Origin: Octopus vulgaris
Lineage: Eukaryota
Direction: 5' to 3'
Length of the DNA stretch: 64,000 bases
Assembly: GCA_951406725.2 (NCBI GenBank)
Contig: OX597833.1
Location: 31,992,001 to 32,056,000 of the forward strand
Under the pieces are notes generated by a model. That model worked only from the letters and a program-made list of their open reading frames with translations. It had not been told where the DNA came from and searched no databases. Shown here piece by piece: positions 15,129-62,655 of this stretch. Each line of letters begins with the position of its first letter. The first letter of the stretch is position 1. A program made the translations under genes and the position numbers.

Positions 15129-16414
15129 TTAACATTTTTTTCCTTTCCCTTGGTGTGAATTTCTCTGTATCAGTATGTTCGGATGGTTGAGTCTGGGCTT
15201 GTACTTTTCAATGAAGAATGTTTCCTTGTTTAGTCTAATTTGTGTTGATGATCCGAAAGCACATTGGTAAAATGGAAAGATTAAAAATTGTGGTAGTAGT
15301 TGTTTTGCGCATTTCTCAATGTGCTCACTAAAAGGTATCATTCTATATTCTGGGAATGCAATCTGTTGTCGATGCAGTGTGCATCTACGTCTGAGTGATA
15401 GTCCCGTGGAACCCACGTAGTCTTGGTGGCATCCCGAGCATTTTATGACATAAATTATGTTTTCAGAGGCACAAGTAAAGTTAGATTTGATCTTGAAATT
15501 CTGTCCCTCTTTAAAGAGGAATTCTGATCCTTCTAGCAGGTTAGGACATGTTGCACAGTTCGATCTACCACATTTTTTACTTTTGCATCCGTAATTTCAG
15601 AAGACAATTTTGCCTTTGTGAGAATCTTTTAAAGTGATTTAGGCTGTTTGTAGCTTTTAATGATTTGGTGTATGTTTAGAATTTCCTTTAATTTGGGGTC
15701 TTTATGAAGTATTGGTAAATTCTGGGTGATGATGGTGAAGGCTTCTTTGTTTCTGGGGTTGTATGTAGATATGTAAGGTAGTATTTTCGGGGAAGGTGTG
15801 TTGTTGTGTTGAACTTTTCTTAAAGTTTCTATGTTGATTTTTGTTGCACGTCTGATCCCATCCTCTATGAGTTGAGCTGGGTAATGTCTGTCAATTAGGG
15901 TGTTTTTGAGTTCTTGCAGTCTAAAGTTCCTGGTATTTTGTTCTGACACTATTGTGCATATCCTTCTTGCAAGGTTGAAGGGGATGTTTGTTTTAGTGTG
16001 TCTTGGGTGGCATGAATTAAAAAGAAGGTATTGTTTGGCGTCTGTGGCTTTGTAAAAAATGTCTGTTTCTATTTTGAGGTTAATTTTTTTAATTAGTATA
16101 TCCAAGAACGGGAGCTCATTTTGGTTGTATTCCATTGTGAACTGTATATTTGGGTTTATGCTGTTCAATAGGTTTTTAAATTTTAGGAGTTTATCTGTGT
16201 TCTCATTCCAGAGAATAAAACAATCGTCTAAGAATCGTTTCCAATTCTCTTTTATGTATTGAGAGAGGGGGTTTCCAAAGATTGATAAAGATTCCTGGTA
16301 AATGATTATTTCCATGTATCCCATTGTTAGGTTCGCAATGACTGGTGCTGCCCATAGCAATTCCGGGTTTTTGACGGTAAAATGTATTGTCAAACATGAA
16401 GTGGTTATTGTGTA

Positions 16415-16416
<2 letters not shown>
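15129..16416 (-). pseudogene. Penelope-like retroelement (Neptune-type): RT C-terminal half plus GIY-YIG endonuclease, 5'-truncated with frameshifts and stops
   Basis: RT motifs FYRQKPGIAMG, WKRFLDDCF, LPFLDI and FYKATDAKQYLLFNSCHP; Cys linker CGRSNCATC; endonuclease FTCASENIIYVIKCSGCHQDYVGSTG...RCTLHR...KETFFIEKYKPRLN. Confidence 0.9.
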
Positions 16417-22940: not shown

Positions 22941-25900
22941 GGGGGGGGTGCAGAAATATAGGGGAGCACCAGTGGGAGGGGTGGTTCAGAGGACAGGTAC
23001 TAGGCAAGTAGAACGTAGGATATCGAGAGAGGGGTAATGCATGGTGAAATAGCGTATTGAAGAGGGGGGTTCAAAGAGTAGACACCTATAATGGTGGTGG
23101 GGGGGTGCAGAAATATAGGGGAGCACCAGTGGGAGGGGTCGTGCAGAGGAAAGGTTCTAGGCAAGTAGAACGTAGGATATCGAGAGAGGGGTAATGCATG
23201 GTGAAATAGCGTATTGAAGAGGGGGGTTCAAAGAGTAGACACCTATAATGGTGGTGGGGGGGTGCAGAAATATAGGGGAGCACCAGTGGGAGGGGTGGTT
23301 CAGAGGACAGGTTCTAGGCAAGTAGAACGTAGGATATCGAGAGAGGGGTAATGCATGGTGAAATAGCGTATTGAAGAGGGGGGTTCAAAGAGTAGACACC
23401 TATAATGGTGGTGGGGGGTGCAGAAATATAGGGGAGCACCAGTGGGAGGGGTGGTTCAGAGGACAGGTTCTAGGCAAGTAGAACGTAGGATATCGAGAGA
23501 GGGGTAATGCATGGTGAAATAGCGTATTGAAGAGGGGGGTTCAAAGAGTAGACACCTATAATGGTGGTGGGGGGTGCAGAAATATAGGGGAGCACCAGTG
23601 GGAGGGGTGGTTCAGAGGACAGGTTCTAGGCAAGTAGAACGTAGGATATCGAGAGAGGGGTAATGCATGGTGAAATAGCGTATTGAAGAGGGGGTTCAAA
23701 GAGTAGACACCTATAATGGTGGTGGGGGGTGCAGAAATATAGGGGAGCACCAGTGGGAGGGGTGGTTCAGAGGACAGGTTCTAGGCATGTAGAACGTAGG
23801 ATATCGAGAGAGGGGTAATGCATGGTGAAATAGCGTATTGAAGAGGAGGGGTTCAAAGAGTAGACACCTATAATGTGGTGGTGGGGGGGGGGCAGAAATA
23901 TAGGGGAGCACCAGTGGGAGGGGTGGTTCAGAGGACAGGTTCTAGGCAAGTAGAACGTAGGATATCGAGAGAGGGGTAATGCATGGTGAAATAGCGTATT
24001 GAAGAGGGGGTTCAAAGAGTAGACACCTATAATGGTGGTGGGGGGTGCAGAAATATAGGGGAGCACCAGTGGGAGGGGTGGTTCAGAGGACAGGTTCTAG
24101 GCAAGTAGAACGTAGGATATCGAGAGAGGGGTAATGCATGGTGAAATAGCGTATTGAAGAGGGGGTTCAAAGAGTAGACACCTATAATGGTGGTGGGGGG
24201 GTGCAGAAATATAGGGGAGCACCAGTGGGAGGGGTGGTTCAGAGGACAGGTTCTAGGCAAGTAGAACGTAGGATATCGAGAGAGGGGTAATGCATGGTGA
24301 AATAGCGTATTGAAGAGGGGGGTTCAAAGAGTAGACACCTATAATGGTGGTGGGGGGTGCAGAAATATAGGGGAGCACCAGTGGGAGGGGTGGTTCAGAG
24401 GACAGGTTCTAGGCAAGTAGAACGTAGGATATCGAGAGAGGGGTAATGCATGGTGAAATAGCGTATTGAAGAGGGGGTTCAAAGAGTAGACACTTATAAT
24501 GGTGGTGGGGGGGTGCAGAAATATAGGGGAGCACCAGTGGGAGGGGTGGTTCAGAGGACAGGTTCTAGGCAAGTAGAACGTAGGATATCGAGAGAGGGGT
24601 AATGCATGGTGAAATAGCGTATTGAAGAGGGGGTTCAAAGAGTAGACACCTATAATGGTGGTGGGGGGTGCAGAAATATAGGGGAGCACCAGTGGGAGGG
24701 GTGGTTCAGAGGACAGGTTCTAGGCAAGTAGAACGTAGGATATCGAGAGAGGGGTAATGCATGGTGAAATAGCGTATTGAAGAGGGGGGTTCAAAGAGTA
24801 GACACCTATAATGGTGGTGGGGGGGGTGCAGAACTATAGGGGAGCACCAGTGGGAGGGGTGGTTCAGAGGACAGATTCTAGGCAAGTAGAACGTAGGATA
24901 TCGAGAGAGGGGTAATGCATGGTGAAATAGCGTATTGAAGAGGGGGGTTCAAAGAGTAGACACCTATAATGGTGGTGGGGGGTGCAGATATATAGGGGAG
25001 CACTAGTGGGAGGGGTGGTTCAGAGGACAGGTACTAGGCAAGTAGAACGTAGGATATCGAGAGAGGGGTAATGCATGGTGAAATAGCGTATTGAAGAGGG
25101 GGGTTCAAAGAGTAGACACCTATAATGGTGGTGGGGGGTGCAGAAATATAGGGGAGCACCAGTGGGAGGGGTGGTTCAGAGGACAGGTTCTAGGCAAGTA
25201 GAACGTAGGATATCGAGAGAGGGGTAATGCATTGTGAAATAGCGTATTGAAGAGGGGGGTTCAAAGAGTAGACACCTATAATGGTGGTGGGGGGGTGCAG
25301 AAATATAGGGGAGCACCAGTGGGAGGGGTGGTTCAGAGGACAGGTTCTAGGCAAGTAGAACGTAGGATATCGAGAGAGGGGTAATGCATGGTGAAATAGC
25401 GTATTGAAGAGGGGGTTCAAAGAGTAGACACCTATAATGGTGGTGGGGGGTGCAGAAATATAGGGGAGCACCAGTGGGAGGGGTGGTTCAGAGGACAGGT
25501 TCTAGGCAAGTAGAACGTAGGATATCGAGAGAGGGGTAATGCATGGTGAAATAGCGTATTGAAGAGGGGGGTTCAAAGAGTAGACACCTATAATGGTGGT
25601 GGGGGGGGTGCAGAAATATAGGGGAGCACCAGTGGGAGGGGTGGTTCAGAGGACAGGTTCTAGGCAAGTAGAACGTAGGATATCGAGAGAGGGGTAATGC
25701 ATGGTGAAATAGCGTATTGAAGAGGGGGGTTCAAAGAGTAGACACCTATAATGGTGGTGGGGGGTGCAGAAATATAGGGGAGCACCAGTGGGAGGGGTGG
25801 TTCAGAGGACAGGTTCTAGGCAAGTAGAACGTAGGATATCGAGAGAGGGGTAATGCATGGTGAAATAGCGTATTGAAGAGGGGGGTTCAAAGAGTAGACA

Positions 25901-28900
25901 CCTATAATGGTGGTGAGGGGTGCAGAAATATAGGGGAGCACCAGTGGGAGGGGTGGTTCAGAGGACAGGTTCTAGGCAAGTAGAACGTAGGATATCGAGA
26001 GAGGGGTAATGCATGGTGAAATAGCGTATTGAAGAGGGGGTTCAAAGAGTAGACACCTATAATGGTGGTGGGGGGTGCAGAAATATAGGGGAGCACCAGT
26101 GGGAGGGGTGGTTCAGAGGACAGGTTCTAGGCTAATAGAACGTAGGATATCGAGAGAAGGGTAATGCATGGTGAAATAGCGTATTGAAGAGGGGGGTTCA
26201 AAGAGTAGACACCTATAATGGTGGTGGGGGGGTGCAGAAATATAGGGGAGCACCAGTGGGAGGGGTGGTTCAGAGGACAGGTTCTAGGCAAGTAGAACGT
26301 AGGATATCGAGAGAGGGGTAATGCATGGTGAAATAGCGTATTGAAGAGGGGGGTTCAAAGAGTAGACACCTATAATGGTGGTGGGGGGTGCAGAAATATA
26401 GGGGAGCACCAGTGGGAGGGGTGGTTCAGAGGACAGGTTCTAGGCAAGTAGAACGTAGGATATCGAGAGAGGGGTAATGCATGGTGAAATAGCGTATTGA
26501 AGAGGGGGTTCAAAGAGTAGACACTTATAATGGTGGTGGGGGGGTGCAGAAATATAGGGGAGCACCAGTGGGAGGGGTGGTTCAGAGGACAGGTTCTAGG
26601 CAAGTAGAACGTAGGATATCGAGAGAGGGGTAATGCATGGTGAAATAGCGTATTGAAGAGGGGGTTCAAAGAGTAGACACCTATAATGGTGGTGGGGGGT
26701 GCAGAAATATAGGGGAGCACCAGTGGGAGGGGTGGTTCAGAGGACAGGTTCTAGGCAAGTAGAACGTAGGATATCGAGAGAGGGGTAATGCATGGTGAAA
26801 TAGCGTATTGAAGAGGGGGGTTCAAAGAGTAGACACCTATAATGGTGGTGGGGGGTGCAGAAATATAGGGGAGCACCAGTGGGAGGGGTGGTTCAGAGGA
26901 CAGGTTCTAGGCAAGTAGAACGTAGGATATCGAGAGAGGGGTAATGCATGGTGAAATAGCGTATTGAAGAGGGGGTTCAAAGAGTAGACACCTATAATGG
27001 TGGTGGGGGGTGCAGAAATATAGGGGAGCACCAGTGGGAGGGGTGGTTCAGAGGACAGGTACTAGGCAAGTAGAACGTAGGATATCGAGAGAGGGATAAT
27101 GCATGGTGAAATAGCGTATTGAAGAGGGGGGTTCAAAGAGTAGACACCTATAATGGTGGTGGGGGGTGCAGAAATATAGGGGAGCACCAGTGGGAGGGGT
27201 GGTTCAGAGGACAGGTTCTAGGCAAGTAGAACGTAGGATATCGAGAGAGGGGTAATGCATGGTGAAATAGCGTATTGAAGAGGGGGGTTCAAAGAGTAGA
27301 CACCTATAATGGTGGTGGGGGGTGCAGAAATATAGGGGAGCACCAGTGGGAGGGGTGGTTCAGAGGACAGGTTCTAGGCAAGTAGAACGTAGGATATCGA
27401 GAGAGGGGTAATGCATGGTGAAATAGCGTATTGAAGAGGGGGTTCAAAGAGTAGACACCTATAATGGTGGTGGGGGGTGCAGAAATATAGGGGAGCACCA
27501 GTGGGAGGGGTGGTTCAGAGGACAGGTTCTAGGCAAGTAGAACGTAGGATATCGAGAGAGGGGTAATGCATGGTGAAATAGCGTATTGAAGAGGGGGTTC
27601 AAAGAGTAGACACCTATAATGGTGGTGGGGGGTGCAGAAATATAGGGGAGCACCAGTGGGAGGGGTGGTTCAGAGGACAGGTTCTAGGCAAGTAGAACGT
27701 AGGATATCGAGAGAGGGGTAATGCATGGTGAAATAGCGTATTGAAGAGGGGGTTCAAAGAGTAGACACCTATAATGGTGGTGGGGGGTGCAGAAATATAG
27801 GGGAGCACCAGTGGGAGGGGTGGTTCAGAGGACAGGTTCTAGGCAAGTAGAACGTAGGATATCGAGAGAGGGGTAATGCATGGTGAAATAGCGTATTGAA
27901 GAGGGGGGTTCAAAGAGTAGACACCTATAATGGTGGTGGGGGTGCAGAAATATAGGGGAGCACCAGTGGGAGGGGTGGTTCAGAGGACAGTTTCTAGGCA
28001 AGTAGAACGTAGGATATCGAGAGAGGGGTAATGCATGGTGAAATAGCGTATTGAAGAGGGGGGTTCAAAGAGTAGACACTTATAATGGTGGTGGGGGGTG
28101 CAGAAATATAGGGGAGCACCAGTGGGAGGGGTGGTTCAGAGGACAGGTTCTAGGCAAGTAGAACGTAGGATATCGAGAGAGGGGTAATGCATGGTGAAAT
28201 AGCGTATTGAAGAGGGGGTTCAAAGAGTAGACACCTATAATGGTTGTGGGGGTGCAGAAATATAGGGGAGCACCAGTGGGAGGGGTGGTTCAGAGGACAG
28301 GTTCTAGGCAAGTAGAACGTAGGATATCGAGAGAGGGGTAATGCATGGTGAAATAGCGTATTGAAGAGGGGGGTTCAAAGAGTAGACACCTATAATGGTG
28401 GTGGGGGGGTGCAGAAATATAGGGGAGCACCAGTGGGAGGGGTGGTTCAGAGGACAGGTTCTAGGCAAGTAGAACGTAGGATATCGAGAGAGGGGTAATG
28501 CATGGTGAAATAGCGTATTGAAGAGGGGGTTCAAAGAGTAGACACCTATAATGGTGGTGGGGGGTGCAGAAATATAGGGGAGCACCAGTGGGAGGGGTGG
28601 TTCAGAGGACAGGTTCTAGGCAAGTAGAACGTAGGATATCGAGAGAGGGGTAATGCATGGTGAAATAGCGTATTGAAGAGGGGGGTTCAAAGAGTAGACA
28701 CTTATAATGGTGGTGGGGGGTGCAGAAATATAGGGGAGCACCAGTGGGAGGGGTGGTTCAGAGGACAGGTTCTAGGCAAGTAGAACGTAGGATATCGAGA
28801 GAGGGGTAATGCATGGTGAAATAGCGTATTGAAGAGGGGGGTTCAAAGAGTAGACACCTATAATGGTGGTGGGGGGTGCAGAAATATAGGGGAGCACCAG

Positions 28901-31900
28901 TGGGAGGGGTGGTTCAGAGGACAGGTTCTAGGCAAGTAGAACGTAGGATATCGAGAGAGGGGTAATGCATGGTGAAATAGCGTATTGAAGAGGGGGTTCA
29001 AAGAGTAGACACCTATAATGGTGGTGGGGGGGTGCAGAACTATAGGGGAGCACCAGTGGGAGGGGTGGTTCAGAGGACAGGTTCTAGGCAAGTTGAACGT
29101 AGGATATCGAGAGAGGGGTAATGCATGGTGAAATAGCGTATTGAAGAGGGGGGTTCAAAGAGTAGACACCTATAATGGTGGTGGGGGGTGCAGAAATATA
29201 GGGGAGCACCAGTGGGAGGGGTGGTTCAGAGGACAGGTACTAGGCAAGTAGAACGTAGGATATCGAGAGAGGGGTAATGCATGGTGAAATAGCGTATTGA
29301 AGAGGGGGGTTCAAAGAGTAGACACCTATAATGGTGGTGGGGGGTGCAGAAATATAGGGGAGCACCAGTGGGAGGGGTGGTTCAGAGGACAGGTTCTAGG
29401 CAAGTAGAACGTAGGATATCGAGAGAGGGGTAATGCATGGTGAAATAGCGTATTGAAGAGGGGGTTCAAAGAGTAGACACCTATAATGGTGGTGGGGGGT
29501 GCAGAAATATAGGGGAGCACCAGTGGGAGGGGTGGTTCAGAGGACAGGTTCTAGGCAAGTAGAACGTAGGATATCGAGAGAGGGGTAATGCATGGTGAAA
29601 TAGCGTATTGAAGAGGGGGGTTCAAAGAGTAGACACCTATAATGGTGGTGGGGGGTGCAGAAATATAGGGGAGCACCAGTGGGAGGGGTGGTTCAGAGGA
29701 CAGGTTCTAGGCAAGTAGAACGTAGGATATCGAGAGAGGGGTAATGCATGGTGAAATAGCGTATTGAAGAGGGGGTTCAAAGAGTAGACACCTATAATGG
29801 TGGTGGGGGGGTGCAGAAATATAGGGGAGCACCAGTGGGAGGGGTGGTTCAGAGGACAGGTTCTAGGCAAGTAGAACGTAGGATATCGAGAGAGGGGTAA
29901 TGCATGGTGAAATAGCGTATTGAAGAGGGGGTTCAAAGAGTAGACACCTATAATGGTGGTGGGGGGTGCAGAAATATAGGGGAGCACCAGTGGGAGGGGT
30001 GGTTCAGAGGACAGGTTCTAGGCAAGTAGAACGTAGGATATCGAGAGAGGGGTAATGCATGGTGAAATAGCGTATTGAAGAGGGGGGTTCAAAGAGTAGA
30101 CACCTATAATGGTGGTGGGGGGTGCAGAAATATAGGGGAGCACCAGTGGGAGGGGTGGTTCAGAGGACAGGTTCTAGGCAAGTAGAACGTAGGATATCGA
30201 GAGAGGGGTAATGCATGGTGAAATAGCGTATTGAAGAGGGGGTTCAAAGAGTAGATACCTATAATGGTGGTGGGGGGGTGCAGAAATATAGGGGAGCACC
30301 AGTGGGAGGGGTGGTTCAGAGGACAGGTTCTAGGCAAGTAGAACGTAGGATATCGAGAGAGGGGTAATGCATGGTGAAATAGCGTATTGAAGAGGGGGGT
30401 TCAAAGAGTAGACACCTATAATGGTGGTGGGGGGTGCAGAAATATAGGGGAGCACCAGTGGGAGGGGTGGTTCAGAGGACAGGTTCTAGGCAAGTAGAAC
30501 GTAGGATATCGAGAGAGGGGTAATGCATGGTGAAATAGCGTATTGAAGAGGGGGGTTCAAAGAGTAGACACCTATAATGGTGGTGGGGGGTGCAGAAATA
30601 TAGGGGAGCACCAGTGGGAGGGGTGGTTCAGAGGACAGGTTCTAGGCAAGTAGAACGTAGGATATCGAGAGAGGGGTAATGCATGGTGAAATAGCGTATT
30701 GAAGAGGGGTGTTCAAAGAGTAGACACCTTATAATGGTGGTGGGGGGGTGCAGAAATATAGGGGAGCACCAGTGGGAGGGGTGGTTCAGAGGACAGGTTC
30801 TAGGCAAGTAGAACGTAGGATATCGAGAGAGGGGTAATGCATGGTGAAATAGCGTATTGAAGAGGGGGTTCAAAGAGTAGACACCTATAATGGTGGTGGG
30901 GGGTGCAGAAATATAGGGGAGCACCAGTGGGAGGGGTGGTTCAGAGGACAGGTTCTAGGCAAGTAGAACGTAGGATATCGAGAGAGGGGTAATGCATGGT
31001 GAAATAGCGTATTGAAGAGGGGGGTTCAAAGAGTAGACACCTATAATGGTGGTGGGGGGTGCAGAAATATAGGGGAGCACCAGTGGGAGGGGTGGTTCAG
31101 AGGACAGGTTCTAGGCAAGTAGAACGTAGGATATCGAGAGAGGGGTAATGCATGGTGAAATAGCGTATTGAAGAGGGGGTTCAAAGAGTAGACACCTATA
31201 ATGGTGGTGGGGGGTGCAGAAATATAGGGGAGCACCAGTGGGAGGGGTGGTTCAGAGGACAGGTTCTAGGCAAGTAGAACGTAGGATATCGAGAGAGGGG
31301 TAATGCATGGTGAAATAGCGTAATGAAGAGGGGAGTTCAAATAGTAGACACCTATAATGGTGGTGGGGGGTGCAGAAATATAGGGGAGCACCAGTGGGAG
31401 GGGTGGTTCAGAGGACAGGTACTAGGCAAGTAGAACGTAGGATATCGAGAGAGGGGTAATGCATGGTGAAATAGCGTATTGAATAGGGGGTTCAAAGAGT
31501 AGACACCTATAATGGTGGTGGGGGGTGCAGAAATATAGGGGAGCACCAGTGGGAGGGGTGGTTCAGAGGACAGGTTCTAGGCAAGTAGAACGTAGGATAT
31601 CGAGAGAGGGGTAATGCATGGTGAAATAGCGTATTGAAGAGGGGGTTCAAAGAGTAGACACCTATAATGGTGGTGGGGGGTGCAGAAATATAGGGGAGCA
31701 CCAGTGGGAGGGGTGGTTCAGAGGACAGGTTCTAGGCAAGTAGAACGAAGGATATCGAGAGAGGGGTAATGCATGGTGAAATAGCGTATTGAAGAGGGGG
31801 TTCAAAGAGTAGACACCTATAATGGTGGTGGGGGGGTGCAGAAATATAGGGGAGCACCAGTGGGAGGGGTGGTTCAGAGGACAGGTTCTAGGCAAGTAGA

Positions 31901-33545
31901 ACGTAGGATATCGAGAGAGGGGTAATGCATGGTGAAATAGCGTATTGAAGAGGGGGGTTCAAAGAGTAGACACCTATAATGGTGGTGGGGGCTGCAGAAA
32001 TATAGGGGAGCACCAGTGGGAGGGGTGGTTCAGAGGACAGGTTCTAGGCAAGTAGAACGTAGGATATCGAGAGAGGGGTAATGCATGGTGAAATAGCGTA
32101 TTGAAGAGGGGGTTCAAAGAGTAGACACCTATAATGGTGGTGGGGGGTGCAGAAATATAGGGGAGCACCAGTGGGAGGGGTGGTTCAGAGGACAGGTTCT
32201 AGGCAAGTAGAACGTAGGATATCGAGAGAGGGGTAATGCATGGTGAAATAGCGTATTGAAGAGGGGGGTTCAAAGAGTAGACACCTATAATGGTGGTGGG
32301 GGGTGCAGAACTATAGGGGAGCACCAGTGGGAGGGGTGGTTCAGAGGACAGGTTCTAGGCAAGTAGAACGTAGGATATCGAGAGAGGGGTAATGCATGGT
32401 GAAATAGCGTATTGAAGAGGGGAGTTCAAAGAGTAGACACCTATAATGGTGGTGGGGGGTGCAGAAATATAGGGGAGCACCAGTGGGAGGGGTGGTTCAC
32501 AGGACAGGTACTAGGCAAGTAGAACGTAGGATATCGAGAGAGGGGTAATGCATGGTGAAATAGCGTATTGAAGAGGGGGTTCAAAGAGTAGACACCTATA
32601 ATGGTGGTGGGGGGTGCAGAAATATAGGGGAGCACCAGTGGGAGGGGTGGTTCAGAGGACAGGTTCTAGGCAAGTAGAACGTAGGATATCGAGAGAGGGG
32701 TAATGCATGGTGAAATAGCGTATTGAAGAGGGGGTTCAAAGAGTAGACACCTATAATGGTGGTGGGGGGGTGCAGAAATATAGGGGAGCCCCAGTGGGAG
32801 GGGTGGTTCAGAGGACAGGTTCTAGGCAAGTAGAACGTAGGATATCGAGAGAGGGGTAATGCATGGTGAAATAGCGTATTGAAGAGGGGGGTTCAAAGAG
32901 TAGACACCTATAATGGTGGTGGGGGGTGCAGAAATATAGGGGAGCACCAGTGGGAGGGGTGGTTCAGAGGACAGGTTCTAGGCAAGTAGAACGTAGGATA
33001 TCGAGAGAGGGGTAATGCATGGTGAAATAGCGTATTGAAGAGGGGGTTCAAAGAGTAGACACCTATAATGGTGGTGGGGGGTGCAGAAATATAGGGGAGC
33101 ACCAGTGGGAGGGGTGGTTCAGAGGACAGGTTCTAGGCAAGTAGAACGTAGGATATCGAGAGAGGGGTAATGCATGGTGAAATAGCGTATTGAAGAGGGG
33201 GTTCAAAGAGTAGACACCTATAATGGTGGTGGGGGGGTGCAGAAATATAGGGGAGCACCAGTGGGAGGGGTGGTTCAGAGGACAGGTTCTAGGCAAGTAG
33301 AACGTAGGATATCGAGAGAGGGGTAATGCATGGTGAAATAGCGTATTGAATAGGGGGGTTCAAAGAGTAGACACCTATAATGGTGGTGGGGGGTGCAGAA
33401 ATATAGGGGAGCACCAGTGGGAGGGGTGGTTCAGAGGAGAGGTACTAGGCAAGTAGAACGTAGGATATCGAGAGAGGGGTAATGCATGGTGAAATAGCCT
33501 ATTGAAGAGGGGGTTCAAAGAGTAGACACCTATAATGGTGGTGGG
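22941..33545. repeat. Satellite array, 155-157 bp monomer, about 68 near-identical copies, G-rich on the + strand
   Basis: Unit TGCAGAAATATAGGGGAGCACCAGTGGGAGGGGTGGTTCAGAGGACAGGTTCTAGGCAAGTAGAACGTAGGATATCGAGAGAGGGGTAATGCATGGTGAAATAGCGTATTGAAGAG(G)nTTCAAAGAGTAGACACCTATAATGGTGGT(G)n; length variation lies mainly in the two G runs. Confidence 0.98.
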
Positions 33546-33623: not shown

Positions 33624-34505
33624 GCGAAGAATCGGCAGCCAATTTCTAATCAGCCCTGTAAGGGAGATAGATATTAAATATCTATAACGATAACTAGTGA
33701 ATTATACAGAATATGCAAAAACGAGGCGAGGCTGAAATAGTAAACAGAGTGGCGACTAGGGGGATCAGAATAATAATAATTAATAAATAATAATAATAAT
33801 AAATAGAGATACGGATGAATTAAAGTTCAAAGATTTCTTATCTTGGGATCACTTCGTTTACGGACAGACTTGGCAAAAGGAATTCGGAATCAAGAGTGAG
33901 GCAGGTTACTAGCTTAAGTATGCATAGCCATGGCGAGGGGTAGGAAGAGAGGAGTCCAGACAGACGACAATGTAAAAAGAGGGGGAGAGAAGGGAAGAGA
34001 AAAACCCCGCGAAGAATCGGCAGCCAATTTCTAATCAGCCCTGTAAAGGAGATAGATATTAAATATCTATAACGATAACTAGTGAATTATACAGAATATG
34101 CAAAAACGAGGCGAGGCTGAAATAGTAAACAGAGTGGCGACTAGGGGGATCAGAATAATAATAATTAATAAATAATAATAATAATAAATAGAGATACGGA
34201 TGAATTAAAGTTCAAAGATTTCTTATCTTGGGATCACTTCGTTTACGGACAGACTTGGCAAAAGGAATTCGGAATCAAGAGTGAGGCAGGTTACTAGCTT
34301 AAGTATGCATAGCCATGGCGAGGGGTAGGAAGAGAGGAGTCCAGACAGACGACAATGTAAAAAGAGGGGGAGAGAAGGGAAGAGAAAAACCCCGCGAAGA
34401 ATCGGCAGCCAATTTCTAATCAGCCCTGTAAAGGAGATAGATATTAAATATCTATAACGATAACTAGTGAATTATACAGAATATGCAAAAACGAGGCGAG
34501 GCTGA
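33624..34505. repeat. 385 bp tandem repeat, about 2.3 copies
   Basis: CGAAGAATCGGCAGCC recurs at 33625, 34010 and 34395; copies are almost identical; the last one is cut by (TA)n. Confidence 0.95.
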
Positions 34506-34507
34506 TA

Positions 34508-34626
<119 letters not shown>

Positions 34627-46571: not shown

Positions 46572-46984
46572 TACATACATACATACATACATACATACAT
46601 ACATACATACATACATACATACATACATACATACATACATACATACATACACACACACACGCACATACATACATACATACATACATACATACATACATAC
46701 ATACATACATACATACATACATACATACATACATACATACATTCATGCATTCACGCTTAGATATGCTAGTGGATACTTGCAACTGGAGACACTCAAAGAA
46801 GCAGAAACCTAAATTTAGCGATTCCAAAGCCGGTGTTCGACGCTTTTCGCCTGCTATTGATATACTTGTGTGCTTTTTAGCATTATACATCTATACCAGA
46901 TGCTTTCTTGAGATGAAAACCACAGCTTTATGGCTTTCTGCAGTATGTGCCAGTATATCCAAGTTAAGTAATCTATACAGAATG

Positions 46985-53900: not shown

Positions 53901-56741
53901 TTTGTGAGTAATATCGGCAGTTGTGAAAAGAGATTGAAAAAGAGAATGTTAGCAATTTCACACATTGCAGGATGGTGCGTGACTTTATGACAACACTGTA
54001 GATCTATTTATTAGACAACATCAGTTTACGACAGAGCCTTTTGCTCTTCATCGAAAATAAGAGGAACATAAAAATTTCCTCTTCTTTACGGTAAGCAAAT
54101 TTATTTCACTATTGAACTCTGTATTTATGGCTTAGACAAGAAGGACAGTTCCATGGATCCCCTTCAGGGTCTCCGAAACTGGCGGAAGGAAGGAAAAAGT
54201 TATCCTTGGAGGGGACACATTCCCAGAATGGAACAATCTGGACTTCACTCAAGGTACTCAAGTATTAAAGCGGGCAGTGGGTTAAGTCAACCACCCAAAG
54301 GATTTACTCCTGTCATGAAATAATTTCTGCAATTTCACCACTCTATTGCCAATATTTATTTTAGCGGTCCCGGAGATGGGTTGAAATGTAGGCCACAAGT
54401 TCTAACAAACTAGATCCTAAAAGGCATTCTTTTTATTGTCACCCACGCCCACAATTTTTGTTATTTCATACAATGGGGTTTTTGTTTCATTTTATTGTTT
54501 TTTACCATATTGGTAGAGTACTATTTACTTTGTGGGCGGGTACCTTTTGAATATTTGGTTGGTATTTGTTTCATAGATTTCATTGGAATGTAAATAAATA
54601 AATAAAATAATAGTGGCTTCTGTGGGGTTTGAACTGAGAATGTGAAAAGAAGTTTAAAAAATTGTAATATACTTCGTTTTATGCTCTCCCGACTCTCCCA
54701 ACTGACGTTGTCAACCATGTTATTTAACTTCTAATAGAAAGGTTATTTAGTTACTCTTTTTGCTTGTTCGCAAATACATCATTATGAAGTAGCCAGTTAT
54801 ATGCCTAGAAACTGACGTTGTTAACGATGTTGTTGTTTGGTCCTAAAACGTCCCAGGTCAAAGAGATTTTCGGTCAAAGACGTTCCTTCCAGCTTTTTTC
54901 AGTCCTCGTGTTCCTTGGACATTATCCAATGTATTCATTTTATAAAATAGCGACGATAAGTAATTTTAGAGAGAGAGAGAAAGAGAGGAAAGGAGGGGAG
55001 AAAAAGAAAGAAAGGGAAAGAAAGAGAGAGAGAGGGGGAAAGAAAGACAGAAAGAGAAACAAAGAGAGTTAACTGGTCTTTCTACTAGATCAGTCAACCA
55101 GTTTGAAGTCTCCCTCTTTGACTTGTAAACTGTTGATGTTGTTAATTCTACCAATTGACACAGCAGGCTATATATTATTTAACAGTAGTATTTTTGTATT
55201 TTTCCCTCTTAACAACAAGATCAAATATACTTGCTTATCTGAAAGAAAGAAAAAGAAAAAGCCTAACCCTCATACCACCCAGATTCCTGATATATTTCAA
55301 ATTTAGCTTAGAATGCTTCTCCCACTAAGATTCCCCGCCCCCCGACAACTACGTAGCTGCTATGGTGGTGGTGGTTTGGCAAGACATTTCTTTCAAATTA
55401 CATGACTGATTTCAGAATAAACGGTAGGTTACAGATATGACGTCATTCCACAATTGTCTGACGAGTAAAGAGCTAATTCGTATGTCATTAGTGGAAATTT
55501 TTTTCTTTGTAATCGTATGAGAAGGGTAGCGGCCATGAACCTTTTCAGGGACACTGTGACTGGGGGTGATGGTGCGGTAGTGAAGGCGACAACACTATCC
55601 TGACAACAGTATTCTCGACAGTAACTTATCAACAGAGTGGACTCAATGAAAGAAAAACAAAGGCCAAGTGGAGAGAGGATTAAACTAAGTGACAGATACA
55701 AAAAGATACAGATTGTTCTCGAGTCATATAAACTGATTGGGCTGTTTTCTTGGGTTCCGTGGCGTATATATTCCCCGCTGGATGGGACGCCCGTCTGTTG
55801 CAAGAATATTCATTTTTGCCACGTTTTGAATCAACGTGAAAGAAAGTGTTTTGCTCAAAAACACACACAATATTACGATCATAAGTCCAATGCCCTAACT
55901 GCTAAGCCATGAGCTCCCACGATATTAGGTCTACTCTATGTTATTCTATACTTCATGTTATGTCATTTATTGTCCTGACAGGGTAATCAGAGTGATAACT
56001 AGTTGTCCGCTAACAAACGAGATCTCTACAGTTGATGGTGTACGTCGCTATGCACGTGTGTGTGTGTATAAGCATATATATATACTTGAATAATATAAAT
56101 GTATAATACATATATGTATATGTGTGTGTATGTATATGCGTGTGTGTGTGTATATATATATATGTATGTGTCCGTACCATCTAGGTATTATACACACACG
56201 CATAGGAATTTATGTATGTATGCATGTAGGTAACATACGTATATAACATATTGCAACTTTGTTTCGAGTAATCCCATCGCCTGGTTGTTCTCTTAAACAA
56301 GAGTAGTACGGATGTGAATTTTCAGTCCTGGCCAGGAACATACACTCTTTTGTACAGATGTGGCAACAATATGTGTCTCACCCATTAAATGTTCAGAGAC
56401 GCATGCCTTCATTCCATCATAAAATATTCCATTGATGTTTTGCCTTTTTCGGCCACGTCTAGTTCTACGAAGCAGTACATAATAGAGATGTTAAAAATCG
56501 AGCGACGCCTGTTTGGAGCCTATTAAAGTGAAAAAAAAAGGTGTTGCACAGGGTTAATCCTACTCTTTAAACAATGTGTGCATTTGCTTTTGATGCAACC
56601 GAAGTCGCAAGTGTTTTCCTCCTCCCAGAGAGATGTATAAACAAAGACTAGGTAGGGGTCTCTGCTGTTGAATGGCCATTGACTCAACTGAGTTCATCCG
56701 TCCTTTGACAATTTTTTTATTTCGTACCGTGGGGTGTCCAA

Positions 56742-57064
56742 GGTGCGTGGCTTAGTAGTTAGGGTATTCGACTCACGATCATAAGGCCGTGACTTCGATT
56801 CCCGGCGGCGCGTTGTGTTATTGAGCAAAAAAACTTTATTTCATGATGCTCCAGTTCACTCAGCTGGCAAAAATGAGTTGTACCTGTATTTCAGAGGGTC
56901 GGCCTTGTCACTTTCTATGTCATACTGAATCTCCCTGAGAATTACGTTAAGGGTACGCATGTCTGTGGAGTGCTCATCTATTTGCACGTTAATTTTACGA
57001 GCAGGTTGTTCCGTTGATCAGATCAACTGGGGACCCTTGTCTTCGCAACCTACACCGTGTGCCA
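56742..57064 (+). mobile_element. tRNA-derived SINE related to family C
   Basis: GTGGCTTAGTAGTTAGGG A box-like, CTTCGATTCCC B box-like, V-like body, and a tail shared with 47700-47860. Confidence 0.75.
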
Positions 57065-57269
57065 GTGTAGAGTGTCCAGCGAAAACCATCTTCCTTATCA
57101 AGTTGGCTAGGTAAGAAAGCCTGTTTAGTCGCCGACAGCCCGAACATGCAAAAAGTTCTACTTGTAACACTAAGAGTGACCCGACATATGTGTGTGTGTG
57201 TGTGTGTGTGTATGTATACATATGCATCTCTTTCTTTCTTTCTCTCTCCCCTCTCTCTCTGTATATATC

Positions 57270-57560
57270 CTTCAGTGTCTAGTATGCGCTGAACAACATT
57301 TGTAATGAGTGGAATGTGTCCACAAATCCTCTCTTTGGTCATGAGGTGTTTTGAACCACCACTAGAAACTTGGTATTCGAACCGCCAGAGTGCTCTTGAA
57401 TTCTTTCATATTCCAGGTTTCAGATTCACAGAGAAGAATGTTCTCTATATATGTCATGAAGGCCAGTCTTGTTGACTTCGAAATTACCAGATACTGCAAA
57501 GCTTGTTACAGGCACTTCATGTCCTTCGCATGTCAGCAAGTTTTCCTTACGGTCCTATGT
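57270..57560 (-). pseudogene. Old RTE LINE fragment
   Basis: ENILLCESETW and TKERICGHIPLITNVV align with EPILLYGSETW and TKMQIYGKLPPVSSLV of the RTE at 36391-36741. Confidence 0.55.
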
Positions 57561-57860
57561 TGCAAATAGCCAACAGGCTTATTGAAAATAATTAATGACA
57601 GTAGCAGTATTAATATCAAAAGGTAACCTTTATATCCAACTTAACGTGAATGTCTTGCTAGAGCGTCAAATACTTCTTTATTTATCTTGAGAGGATCTCT
57701 CATATAGACGCATGGTGTATAAAAATACAATACTGCCTCTGTCGCTAATAATTATTTTCTGATAAGCCTATTGGCTGTCTGCGACATCACTACCTGAACG
57801 GGCACTGAAATCCCATATATCGCTAGCAGTGAGATTGGGCTGTATACGGCTACCAGACGT

Positions 57861-57906
57861 CTGCCACTGAGGAGATGGTGCACGTCGAAATCAAGTGATC
57901 TGGCAG
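57861..57906 (+). ncRNA. Canonical type I hammerhead ribozyme at the tip of a long hairpin (57817-57948)
   Basis: CTGCCA-CTGAGGA-GATG-GTGCA-CGTC-GAAA-TCAAGTGA-TC-TGGCAG: all core nucleotides present, stems I, II and III pair, G10.1-C11.1 intact, predicted cleavage after AUC at 57900. Confidence 0.85.
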
Positions 57907-58148
57907 TTCTGGCACCCGTAGTAGCCGATTCTCGTCTGCCAGCGATATGAGTATTTATGCTTTTATGCACCATTCATCCATATGAATGTCGTCTCAAGGT
58001 AAATTACGCTGTGTTAGGAACTCTAACAATACGCCTACGTTAAGTTGGATATAAAGATTGCCTTTTGATATTGACATTGCTTCTGTATTTATGTATGTAT
58101 GTATTGCATATATGTATGTATATGCATATTTTTATATATATGCATATG

Positions 58149-58211
<63 letters not shown>

Positions 58212-58241
58212 GCATATACACACATACATATATATATATAA

Positions 58242-58328
<87 letters not shown>

Positions 58329-61122: not shown

Positions 61123-61194
61123 ACATGCATTCAAACATACTTCAAACACTGAACCCAGGGTCCCACCACCGGATGTAGTTTAGAGTCATATCCA

Positions 61195-62655
61195 TACAGT
61201 GGAGTGCCTATGGAAAGGAGGGGTGATAGTGATTGAATGGTTAGCGAGGCTTATGAATGTTTGCTATATGGATAGAAGAATACCAAAGGACTGGTGCAGT
61301 GCCTGTATAGTGCTACTGCACAAGAGGAAAGGAGATAAATGTGAGTGTGAAAATTTTAGGGGTATAAGTCTGTTGTGTGTGGTTAGTAAACTGAATGGGA
61401 GAATATTTGTATTAAGGCAGATGTGTGAGAAGGGAGGGGTGTATACTAGGCCTTTATGGACCCAGAGAAGGCACATGACCGTGTGGATAAGGATACAATG
61501 TGCAGGTTGTATGGAGTAGATGGTAGATTGTTGAGAGCGGTACAGGATTTTTATAGAGAAAACGGCGTGCGTTAGGGTAGGTGGTGAAGTGGTTTAATGT
61601 GGAGGTGGGTTTAAGACAGGCTTGTGTGATGTCCGTGGCTGTTTAATTTATATATGGATGGTGTGGTGAGAGAGGGGAATGCTAGAACCTTTGGTAGGGG
61701 AACCCTGATGGTGGGAGGAAATGGAGAGAAATGGCAGGCGAGTCAGTTGTTGTTTGCTGATGATATAGCACTGGTGGCGGATTCGGAAGAGCAACTGAGG
61801 AGACTGGCGTTAGTGTTTGGAAGAGTGTGTGAGAGAAGGAAACTGAAAGTGAATGTAAGCTAAGAGTAAGGTGATGAGATGTTCGAGATATGGAATGGTT
61901 GGTAGGATGAATGTGAATATAATTGGTGAGAGGAAGTGAGTGTCTTTAAGTATCTGGGATCACAAGTGACGGCGGATGGGGGTATTGGTTGAGGAAGTAG
62001 GATATAGAGTGAGGAGGGGAGTAAGATACTTGGAGTTGTGAAAGGTATGCTGAGAGATATGAAAGCAAAAAGAGGTGTGTATGAGGGCATGGTTGTGCCG
62101 ACAATGTTATATGGTGCAGAGACGTGGGGTCTGAGAGAGGCGGAAAGGAGGCGACTAGATGTGTTTGAGATGAGATGTTTGAGGGCTATGGTTGGTGTGA
62201 CACGGATGGACAGGATGAGGGATGAGGAGGTGCGAAGGCGAGCAGGAATGAGCGAAAATCTATGTACCAGAATAGAGAGACGATTGTTGAGGTGGGGTTT
62301 GGCCACATGGAGAGGAGGGCGAGAAAGGTAGAAGTGGTAGGCAGCTGAACCAGAGGCAGACCTCGGTTTGTGTGGATGGATGGAGTGCGAAAAACTTTGG
62401 TGGTGAGAGGTGTTGGCGTGAGAGAGAGACGAGAGAGTTTATAAATGATAGGAACGCTTGGAGAGTTTGTGGCGGGGGTAAAACCAGCATATTCTGTCGG
62501 GCCCCGCTGCTGATATCGGGGGTTGCTTTCTATGTTTTGATCCGAGCATAGGACGGGGCTCGCCTCTTTGAACTGGGAAATGAATGGAATGCCTGGTGTG
62601 TGTCTTGTGGTTACCTCCTCCTATGAGGAATAGGCATTAGTAAATATAAAAAAAT
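61195..62655 (+). pseudogene. 5'-truncated, degenerate RTE-clade LINE (RT and C-terminus)
   Basis: IPKDW...HKRKGDKCECENFRGISLL, LFNLYMDGVVRE, QLLFADDIALVA, FKYLGS, VVPTMLYGAETW, RLDVFEMRCLR; many indels. Confidence 0.88.

Follow-up and report, generated by a model that had tools for sequence, protein, structure and literature searches.

A hammerhead ribozyme in the octopus genome as an old copy of a probable 343-nt retrozyme family with Penelope-type insertion ends

The hammerhead motif at positions 57861 to 57906 of the window (i.e., the whole 64,000-nt stretch of Octopus vulgaris contig OX597833.1 that was analyzed) in all likelihood belongs to an old copy of a dispersed 343-nt non-LTR retrozyme that presumably owes its genomic insertion to a protein encoded by a Penelope-like element (PLE). 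The window locus is ordinary as such; at the family level, its relatives add a probably unreported group of invertebrate retrozymes. The features of the locus are as follows (window coordinates).

57557 to 57729, minus strand: inverted, 5'-truncated arm lacking the ribozyme (from blastn, a profile match, and direct reading).
57729 to 58086, plus strand: direct arm, comprising one full 343- to 344-nt unit and ~14 nt of the next (from repeat matches in the source genome, period 344).
57729 to 57768, plus strand: tail segment (unit positions 1 to 40); arms terminate either immediately ahead of this segment or toward its distal end.
57816 to 57949, plus strand: imperfect rod of ~135 nt prolonging helix I, an inherited family feature.
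57861 to 57906, plus strand: type I hammerhead motif, with predicted cleavage after C57900.
58087 to 58328, no strand assigned: (TATG)n/(TA)n microsatellite immediately 3' of the direct arm.

The unit (57729 to 58072; G+C content, 44%) has a period of 343 to 344 nt, as the sequence beyond its end returns to its start; the period is 344 at the window copy, which is itself a monomer, and 339 at a tandem locus (L013). The 173 bases of the inverted arm directly upstream correspond to unit positions ~228 to 343 continuing into 1 to 58 (i.e., across the unit junction). In blastn, this arm is 76% identical to 57950-58086 and 80% identical to 57729-57787, and it matches the family profile with 133 bits. 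The first-pass annotation, which was made from the window sequence, had described the hammerhead as stand-alone and lacking a terminal-repeat context. Since a PLE-type inverted partial copy of the unit lies just outside the coordinates considered there, and since the unit is a dispersed repeat, the hammerhead is neither; the contrast drawn in that annotation between a retrozyme and a Penelope element was likewise mistaken here, given the adjoining inverted arm.

The motif itself has all the elements of a type I hammerhead (i.e., the core CUGANGA / GAAA / NUH, three helices, and an open helix I), as the annotation had read it. Helix I consists of 6 bp (CUGCCA/UGGCAG; 57861-66/57901-06), the core strands are CUGAGGA (57867-73) and GAAA (57887-90), and helix II has 4 bp and a 5-nt loop (GUGCA). 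Helix III has 3 to 4 bp, and the cleavage triplet AUC ends in C57900, with the predicted cut 3' of it. Across the family, helix III together with its loop is perfectly palindromic; the window copy departs from this by a single private change (at 57894). This motif is the sole descriptor match on both strands of the 64-kb window; dinucleotide-matched random sequence gave 0.07 loose and 0 strict matches per 64 kb (100 runs). An Rfam scan of the hammerhead region, a check that the annotation had envisaged, returned no ribozyme match at the gathering threshold or at E ≤ 10.

The rod is predicted to be strongly structured (z = -3.56 with the flanking hairpins; z = -4.86 alone), and none of 200 shuffles of the rod alone folded equally well. 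The column-majority sequence of the family forms the same rod with greater stability (-68.8 kcal/mol), of which the window copy retains 47 of the 51 pairs. The predicted fold contains the rod pairings listed in the annotation and its three extra hairpins but lacks the extension suggested there (GGGCA/TGCTT). In every context tried, the CUGA core is paired with the strand of helix III in the most stable predicted fold; the active hammerhead fold lies 2.4 kcal/mol above it in the window copy, and the family majority has the same core-hiding alternative, by 1.4 kcal/mol. The annotation had counted a core-sequestering fold against the ribozyme. Such a fold is narrowly favored by the prediction, which does not decide activity, because the folding model omits the core and tertiary contacts. 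The predicted unit circle is 59 to 69% paired and is branched with one rod, not rod-like throughout.

The dispersed copies for which the annotation had suggested a genome search were found, i.e., the unit is a many-copy repeat. A query with 57700-58060 yielded at least 63 matches in the source genome at the 40 places scored of 776 candidates. Three further queries added loci (63 to 778 first-look candidates per search, 40 of them scored each time), and the resulting set, family A, comprises 97 distinct loci and 152 arms after the removal of duplicates, which is a sample and not a copy number. The median pairwise identity is 73% (best, 80%; first 30 loci), and the arms diverge by 13 to 24% from the column majority; three loci (L135, L136, and L138) are segmental duplicates, 98% identical over 3 kb. 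The copies are circularly permuted and run head to tail for up to two units, beyond which no tandem array extended at the sampled loci; the longest arm has 704 nt, and 7 of 100 arms hold hammerheads in tandem. The excess of arms of exactly one unit is confounded by the choice of query. With a length of 343 to 344 nt and a G+C content of 0.44, the unit falls within the ranges of retrozymes (~170 to 400 nt; <45 to 50%). The suggestion in the annotation that the window holds a retrozyme monomer is thus borne out by unit size, G+C content, the canonical type I hammerhead, head-to-tail copies, a self-paired circle, and the lack of an ORF.

A PLE insertion signature is present in the family, consisting of 5' truncation, an inverted upstream arm, a one-ended tail, and AT-rich or microsatellite targets. 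On a circular profile, the 3' ends of 83 of 100 arms fall within unit positions 321 to 40 (i.e., 18% of the circle), a figure that is biased for the main arms by query choice, and the 5' ends are scattered over the unit. The same region holds the 3' ends of 18 of the 25 adjacent inverted arms, which were not selected by query, and of 41 of the 54 arms in a fresh short-query sample (two being segmental duplicates). Inverted arms lie on the upstream side in all 25 cases. The 3' ends form two groups ~30 nt apart, and a ~30-nt tail occurs at one end only in 19 of the 21 classifiable loci among 30 with two arms (Fisher P = 0.0005, with end classes defined on the same data). Nine of these 30 loci fall outside the end classes, including the window copy, whose arms end at unit positions 58 and ~14 to 17. 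A microsatellite lies ≤40 nt from 30 of 128 family ends, compared with 11 of 128 control stretches. In the accessible text of Craig et al. (PMC8557442), PLEs are described as having 5' truncation, partial tandems, an inverted upstream copy, a 30- to 40-bp one-ended tail, and a microsatellite bias, and that of Frangieh et al. (PMC11167929) shows the PLE tail to span the interval between two internal sites at which reverse transcription starts. By analogy with the latter study, the tail segment of the octopus unit is likely a reverse-transcription start region.

The predicted cut site is crossed by 75 of the 100 arms (once by 68 and twice by 7). Since most arms read through it, the template was not a cut linear monomer; an uncut multimer or a religated circle would fit. 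For PLE insertion, both target strands are reported to be cut and extended, and the main template in vitro is uncut RNA (PMC11167929, accessible text). The 5' ends do not accumulate at the cut site, as they would with a cut RNA template: 9 of 100 arms start in unit positions 165 to 185 (6.1 expected), and only about two of them start cleanly there, the others being fold-back junctions through helix I. A small cluster of 5' ends at unit positions 149 to 156 (10 of 152 arms) is unconvincing given the many bins inspected. Repeats within a locus are 75.0% alike versus 72.0% between loci (60 of 83 pairs, which are non-independent); this fits varied templates and cannot separate a circle from a multimer.

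We infer the following course of events in the founder elements. Founder loci would have been transcribed as multimers, which the hammerhead would have cut to unit length, as a monomer or, via the palindromic helix III, as a dimer, and the unit-length RNAs were probably closed into rod-rich circles. AT-rich or microsatellite DNA would have been nicked on both strands by a reverse transcriptase/GIY-YIG protein that a PLE supplied in trans. Synthesis of cDNA would have begun at two tail sites, each lying roughly half a unit from where the hammerhead cuts, with one 5'-truncated arm arising from either primed end, so that the two arms would form a divergent inverted pair. A more specific version, which we offer tentatively and consider somewhat doubtful, is that the PLE protein reverse-transcribed round the ligated retrozyme circle, with the palindromic helix III hiding the core in the monomer circle. 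The cDNA would then have run from two fixed tail sites opposite the ribozyme and passed the sealed cut site once or twice. If true, this would be direct genomic evidence of circular-RNA-templated retrotransposition in an animal.

The hammerhead core is better conserved than the remainder of the unit (0.94 for core columns versus 0.84 for other non-CpG columns in family A). In helix II, 39 two-sided changes were counted versus 17.7 expected under independence (62 copies, uncorrected for kinship and CpG decay). Covariation over family A is weak, with 15 pairs showing two-sided change versus a shuffled mean of 14.7 (25 rows), and RNAalifold recovered helix II alone. A search by core pattern, in which 40 of 1,845 first-look candidates were scored, revealed a sister family (family B; L187 to L216, e.g., C1:144985105-144985419) with a U3-A8 core, a 6-nt loop II, a different rod sequence, and the same tail. 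The two rods are 74% identical, and of the 51 rod pairs, 6 differ compatibly on both sides and 5 on one side, while 8 are broken. U3-A8 was found in 17 of 25 family B copies, while the 94 rows of family A have C3-G8 in 60 and U3-A8 in 0; the exchange is a natural core covariation, according to the accessible text of two studies (PMC4209133, PMC3088659). The AT-rich tail is common to both families and is the best-conserved stretch between them. Over the tail (unit positions 1 to 40), their majorities agree in 40 of 40 columns, compared with 60 to 95% elsewhere; this was measured on an alignment to the family A profile, which favors agreement, and the raw rows bear the tail identity out. Family B arms also stop at the same two sites as those of family A. 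The swap of C3-G8 for U3-A8 with the tail kept suggests, at the level of sequence, that ribozyme catalysis was likely under selection in the founder elements. A second relative of the unit, far more decayed and with its hammerhead broken, lies at 46765-46984 of the window (plus strand), between (TACA)n and (TA)n. It is 72% alike to a piece in L217, and the two probably represent a third, older family (family C).

The same insertion signature would be expected if the unit were the pseudo-LTR (pLTR) of an old autonomous PLE and the copies its 5'-truncated remains. This explanation gains from the many PLEs in the source genome, decayed ones included, from the accessible part of a 2026 preprint that derives retrozymes from pLTRs, and from PLE protein remnants near 3 of the first 64 loci. 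We nevertheless consider it unlikely. The three remnants are 0.4 to 2.3 kb off and lie behind a microsatellite, behind another repeat, or on the opposite strand, i.e., they are separate insertions, and there were 0 PLE peptide matches in 35 further family A loci and 0 in 25 family B loci. No ORF with reverse transcriptase and GIY-YIG domains adjoins the unit at the 64 + 35 family A or 25 family B loci; the remark in the annotation that the hammerhead has no PLE ORF beside it holds at the window locus. Units are preceded by their own 3' ends (up to two units) and never by an ORF, and the 5' ends have no flank shared in register, unrelated repeats aside. Moreover, the hammerhead is canonical, while most animal pLTRs are reported with the minimal form.

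The search for a partner PLE compared unit and tail profiles with the terminal regions of 43 PLE-endonuclease loci (taken from 150 scored of 6,136 candidates and mostly from one young family) and gave no convincing match. The young family has a 781-aa reverse transcriptase and GIY-YIG frame (L105:1945-4287 and L106:1964-4306), with at least 17 copies of that frame length, and was rejected as the autonomous partner, having no similarity to the unit. We take it to be Neptune-like on account of a zinc-finger-like motif before GIY-YIG. Its frame is preceded by a 333- to 359-aa open frame, which, if real, is unusual for single-ORF PLEs. Loci L023, L035, L058, and L083/L217, considered as partner-linked, proved on inspection to be separate insertions. 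The window also holds a decayed PLE reverse transcriptase and GIY-YIG remnant (15186-16415, minus strand; 48 to 60% identical to the young family), which is 41 kb from the hammerhead and unrelated to it. Other hammerhead-like motifs with a long helix II lie near PLE loci, all on the minus strand (L106:5530, L107:6406, L107:3234, and L112:323 and 818, the L112 pair being 495 bp apart); they are unrelated to the unit.

The annotation had also raised a domesticated ribozyme, i.e., a window copy adopted by the host as a functional (e.g., intronic) ribozyme. The copy is indeed well preserved: it is among 4 of 93 hammerheads with an intact core and fully paired helices, ties for the most rod pairs retained among 63 copies, and has a circle z of -3.1 versus a median of -1.3 in 14 others. 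The insertion is also shared, since contigs from two other organisms cover it. The window copy was, however, the query and was chosen for intactness, and pairing is retained in 5 of its 9 changed pairs versus 38.6% in other copies (P = 0.24). It has itself drifted by 14% from the family majority, the third-smallest distance among 66 (median, 18%). The preservation is no better than chance and ascertainment would account for. The unit diverges at 21 of 370 (5.7%) and 25 of 361 (6.9%) positions in the two other organisms, and its flanks diverge by 4.4 to 8%, so that the insertion is old and shows no constraint on the unit as a whole. A domesticated ribozyme should be single-copy and more conserved than its flanks; this unit is high-copy and, at the whole-unit level in two organisms, has the divergence of its flanks. 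We thus hold domestication to be very improbable, and the window copy of the retrozyme would have decayed neutrally since insertion and be merely among the least damaged.

An integrated exogenous viroid-like circular RNA, the remaining suggestion of the annotation, would fit the unit length, the extent of pairing in the circle, and the circular permutation of the copies, but can practically be dismissed, as the candidate copies number in the hundreds and belong to two or more families, which have PLE-type ends and share an AT-rich tail, and the unit has a ribozyme on a single strand (by descriptor, both strands of the window) and a branched fold, not the both-polarity ribozymes and full-circle rod of viroid-like replicons.

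Several other repeats share the window with the retrozyme copy. Upstream of the unit, 55800-57100 consists of very high-copy repeats, judged by summed contig depth. A 156-bp satellite occupies 22943-33545 (68 copies, 98% alike, with a strong GC skew) and is adjoined by a 385-bp unit in 2.3 tandem copies that are 99% alike (33624-34509). Fragments at 61184-62331 (plus strand) read, by motif, like what is presumably a LINE reverse transcriptase.

Animal non-LTR retrozymes were described in 2020 and were tied to PLEs in a 2026 preprint; the 343-nt family is probably previously unreported. No description of it was found in the literature (repeat libraries [Repbase and Dfam] and supplements were outside that search), and it may be catalogued under another name. 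In the main text of a repeat annotation of octopus from 2026, the words ribozyme, hammerhead, and retrozyme occur 0 times, and the accessible text of the 2020 study (Cervera & de la Pena 2020, PMC7229834) has 0 occurrences of "inverted," "octopus," or "cephalopod." In that text, retrozyme units measure 350 to 390 nt in mussel, ~330/350 nt in axolotl, and 220 to 245 nt in coral. The octopus family resembles those elements in its non-coding ~300-nt unit, G+C content below 45%, canonical type I hammerhead, head-to-tail copies, self-paired predicted circle, and coexistence with PLEs in the same genome. It differs from them, as far as they are documented there, in that its copies are old (73% pairwise identity) and mostly of 0.3 to 2 units with inverted arms; it is described here from genomic DNA, with no long array among the sampled copies.

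Retrozyme-type elements have been proposed to be non-autonomous PLE derivatives, on the basis of vertebrate data (Li, Clavereau & Pollet 2026, bioRxiv 10.64898/2026.07.22.740005; accessible text). Like those elements and the MRC1-type derivatives of Chlamys (PMC8557442), the octopus copies are dispersed monomers that would have been moved by PLEs in trans. In its accessible part, the preprint argues from pLTR homology and from co-occurrence, for the most part in vertebrates, while the present case relies on insertion ends, with no homologous pLTR found. Retrozyme insertion ends that match the two PLE reverse-transcription starts, together with a one-ended tail, constitute evidence that the accessible portions of the retrozyme papers do not give, and the family evidence bears on whether retrozymes move through circles or uncut multimers. 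The tail, as the stretch best kept between sister families, may be a short cis signal that could be tested with purified PLE protein. Compared with the pseudo-LTRs of EN+ PLEs (Penelope/Poseidon and Neptune), the octopus repeats enclose no ORF and, in place of a minimal hammerhead, have a canonical one (helix I of 6 bp) with a long rod. They share with those pseudo-LTRs, as described in the accessible text of three studies (PMC4209133, PMC8557442, PMC11167929), 5' truncation, partial tandems, an inverted upstream copy, a 30- to 40-nt one-ended tail, AT-rich or microsatellite targets, a palindromic helix III, and the U3-A8 variant.
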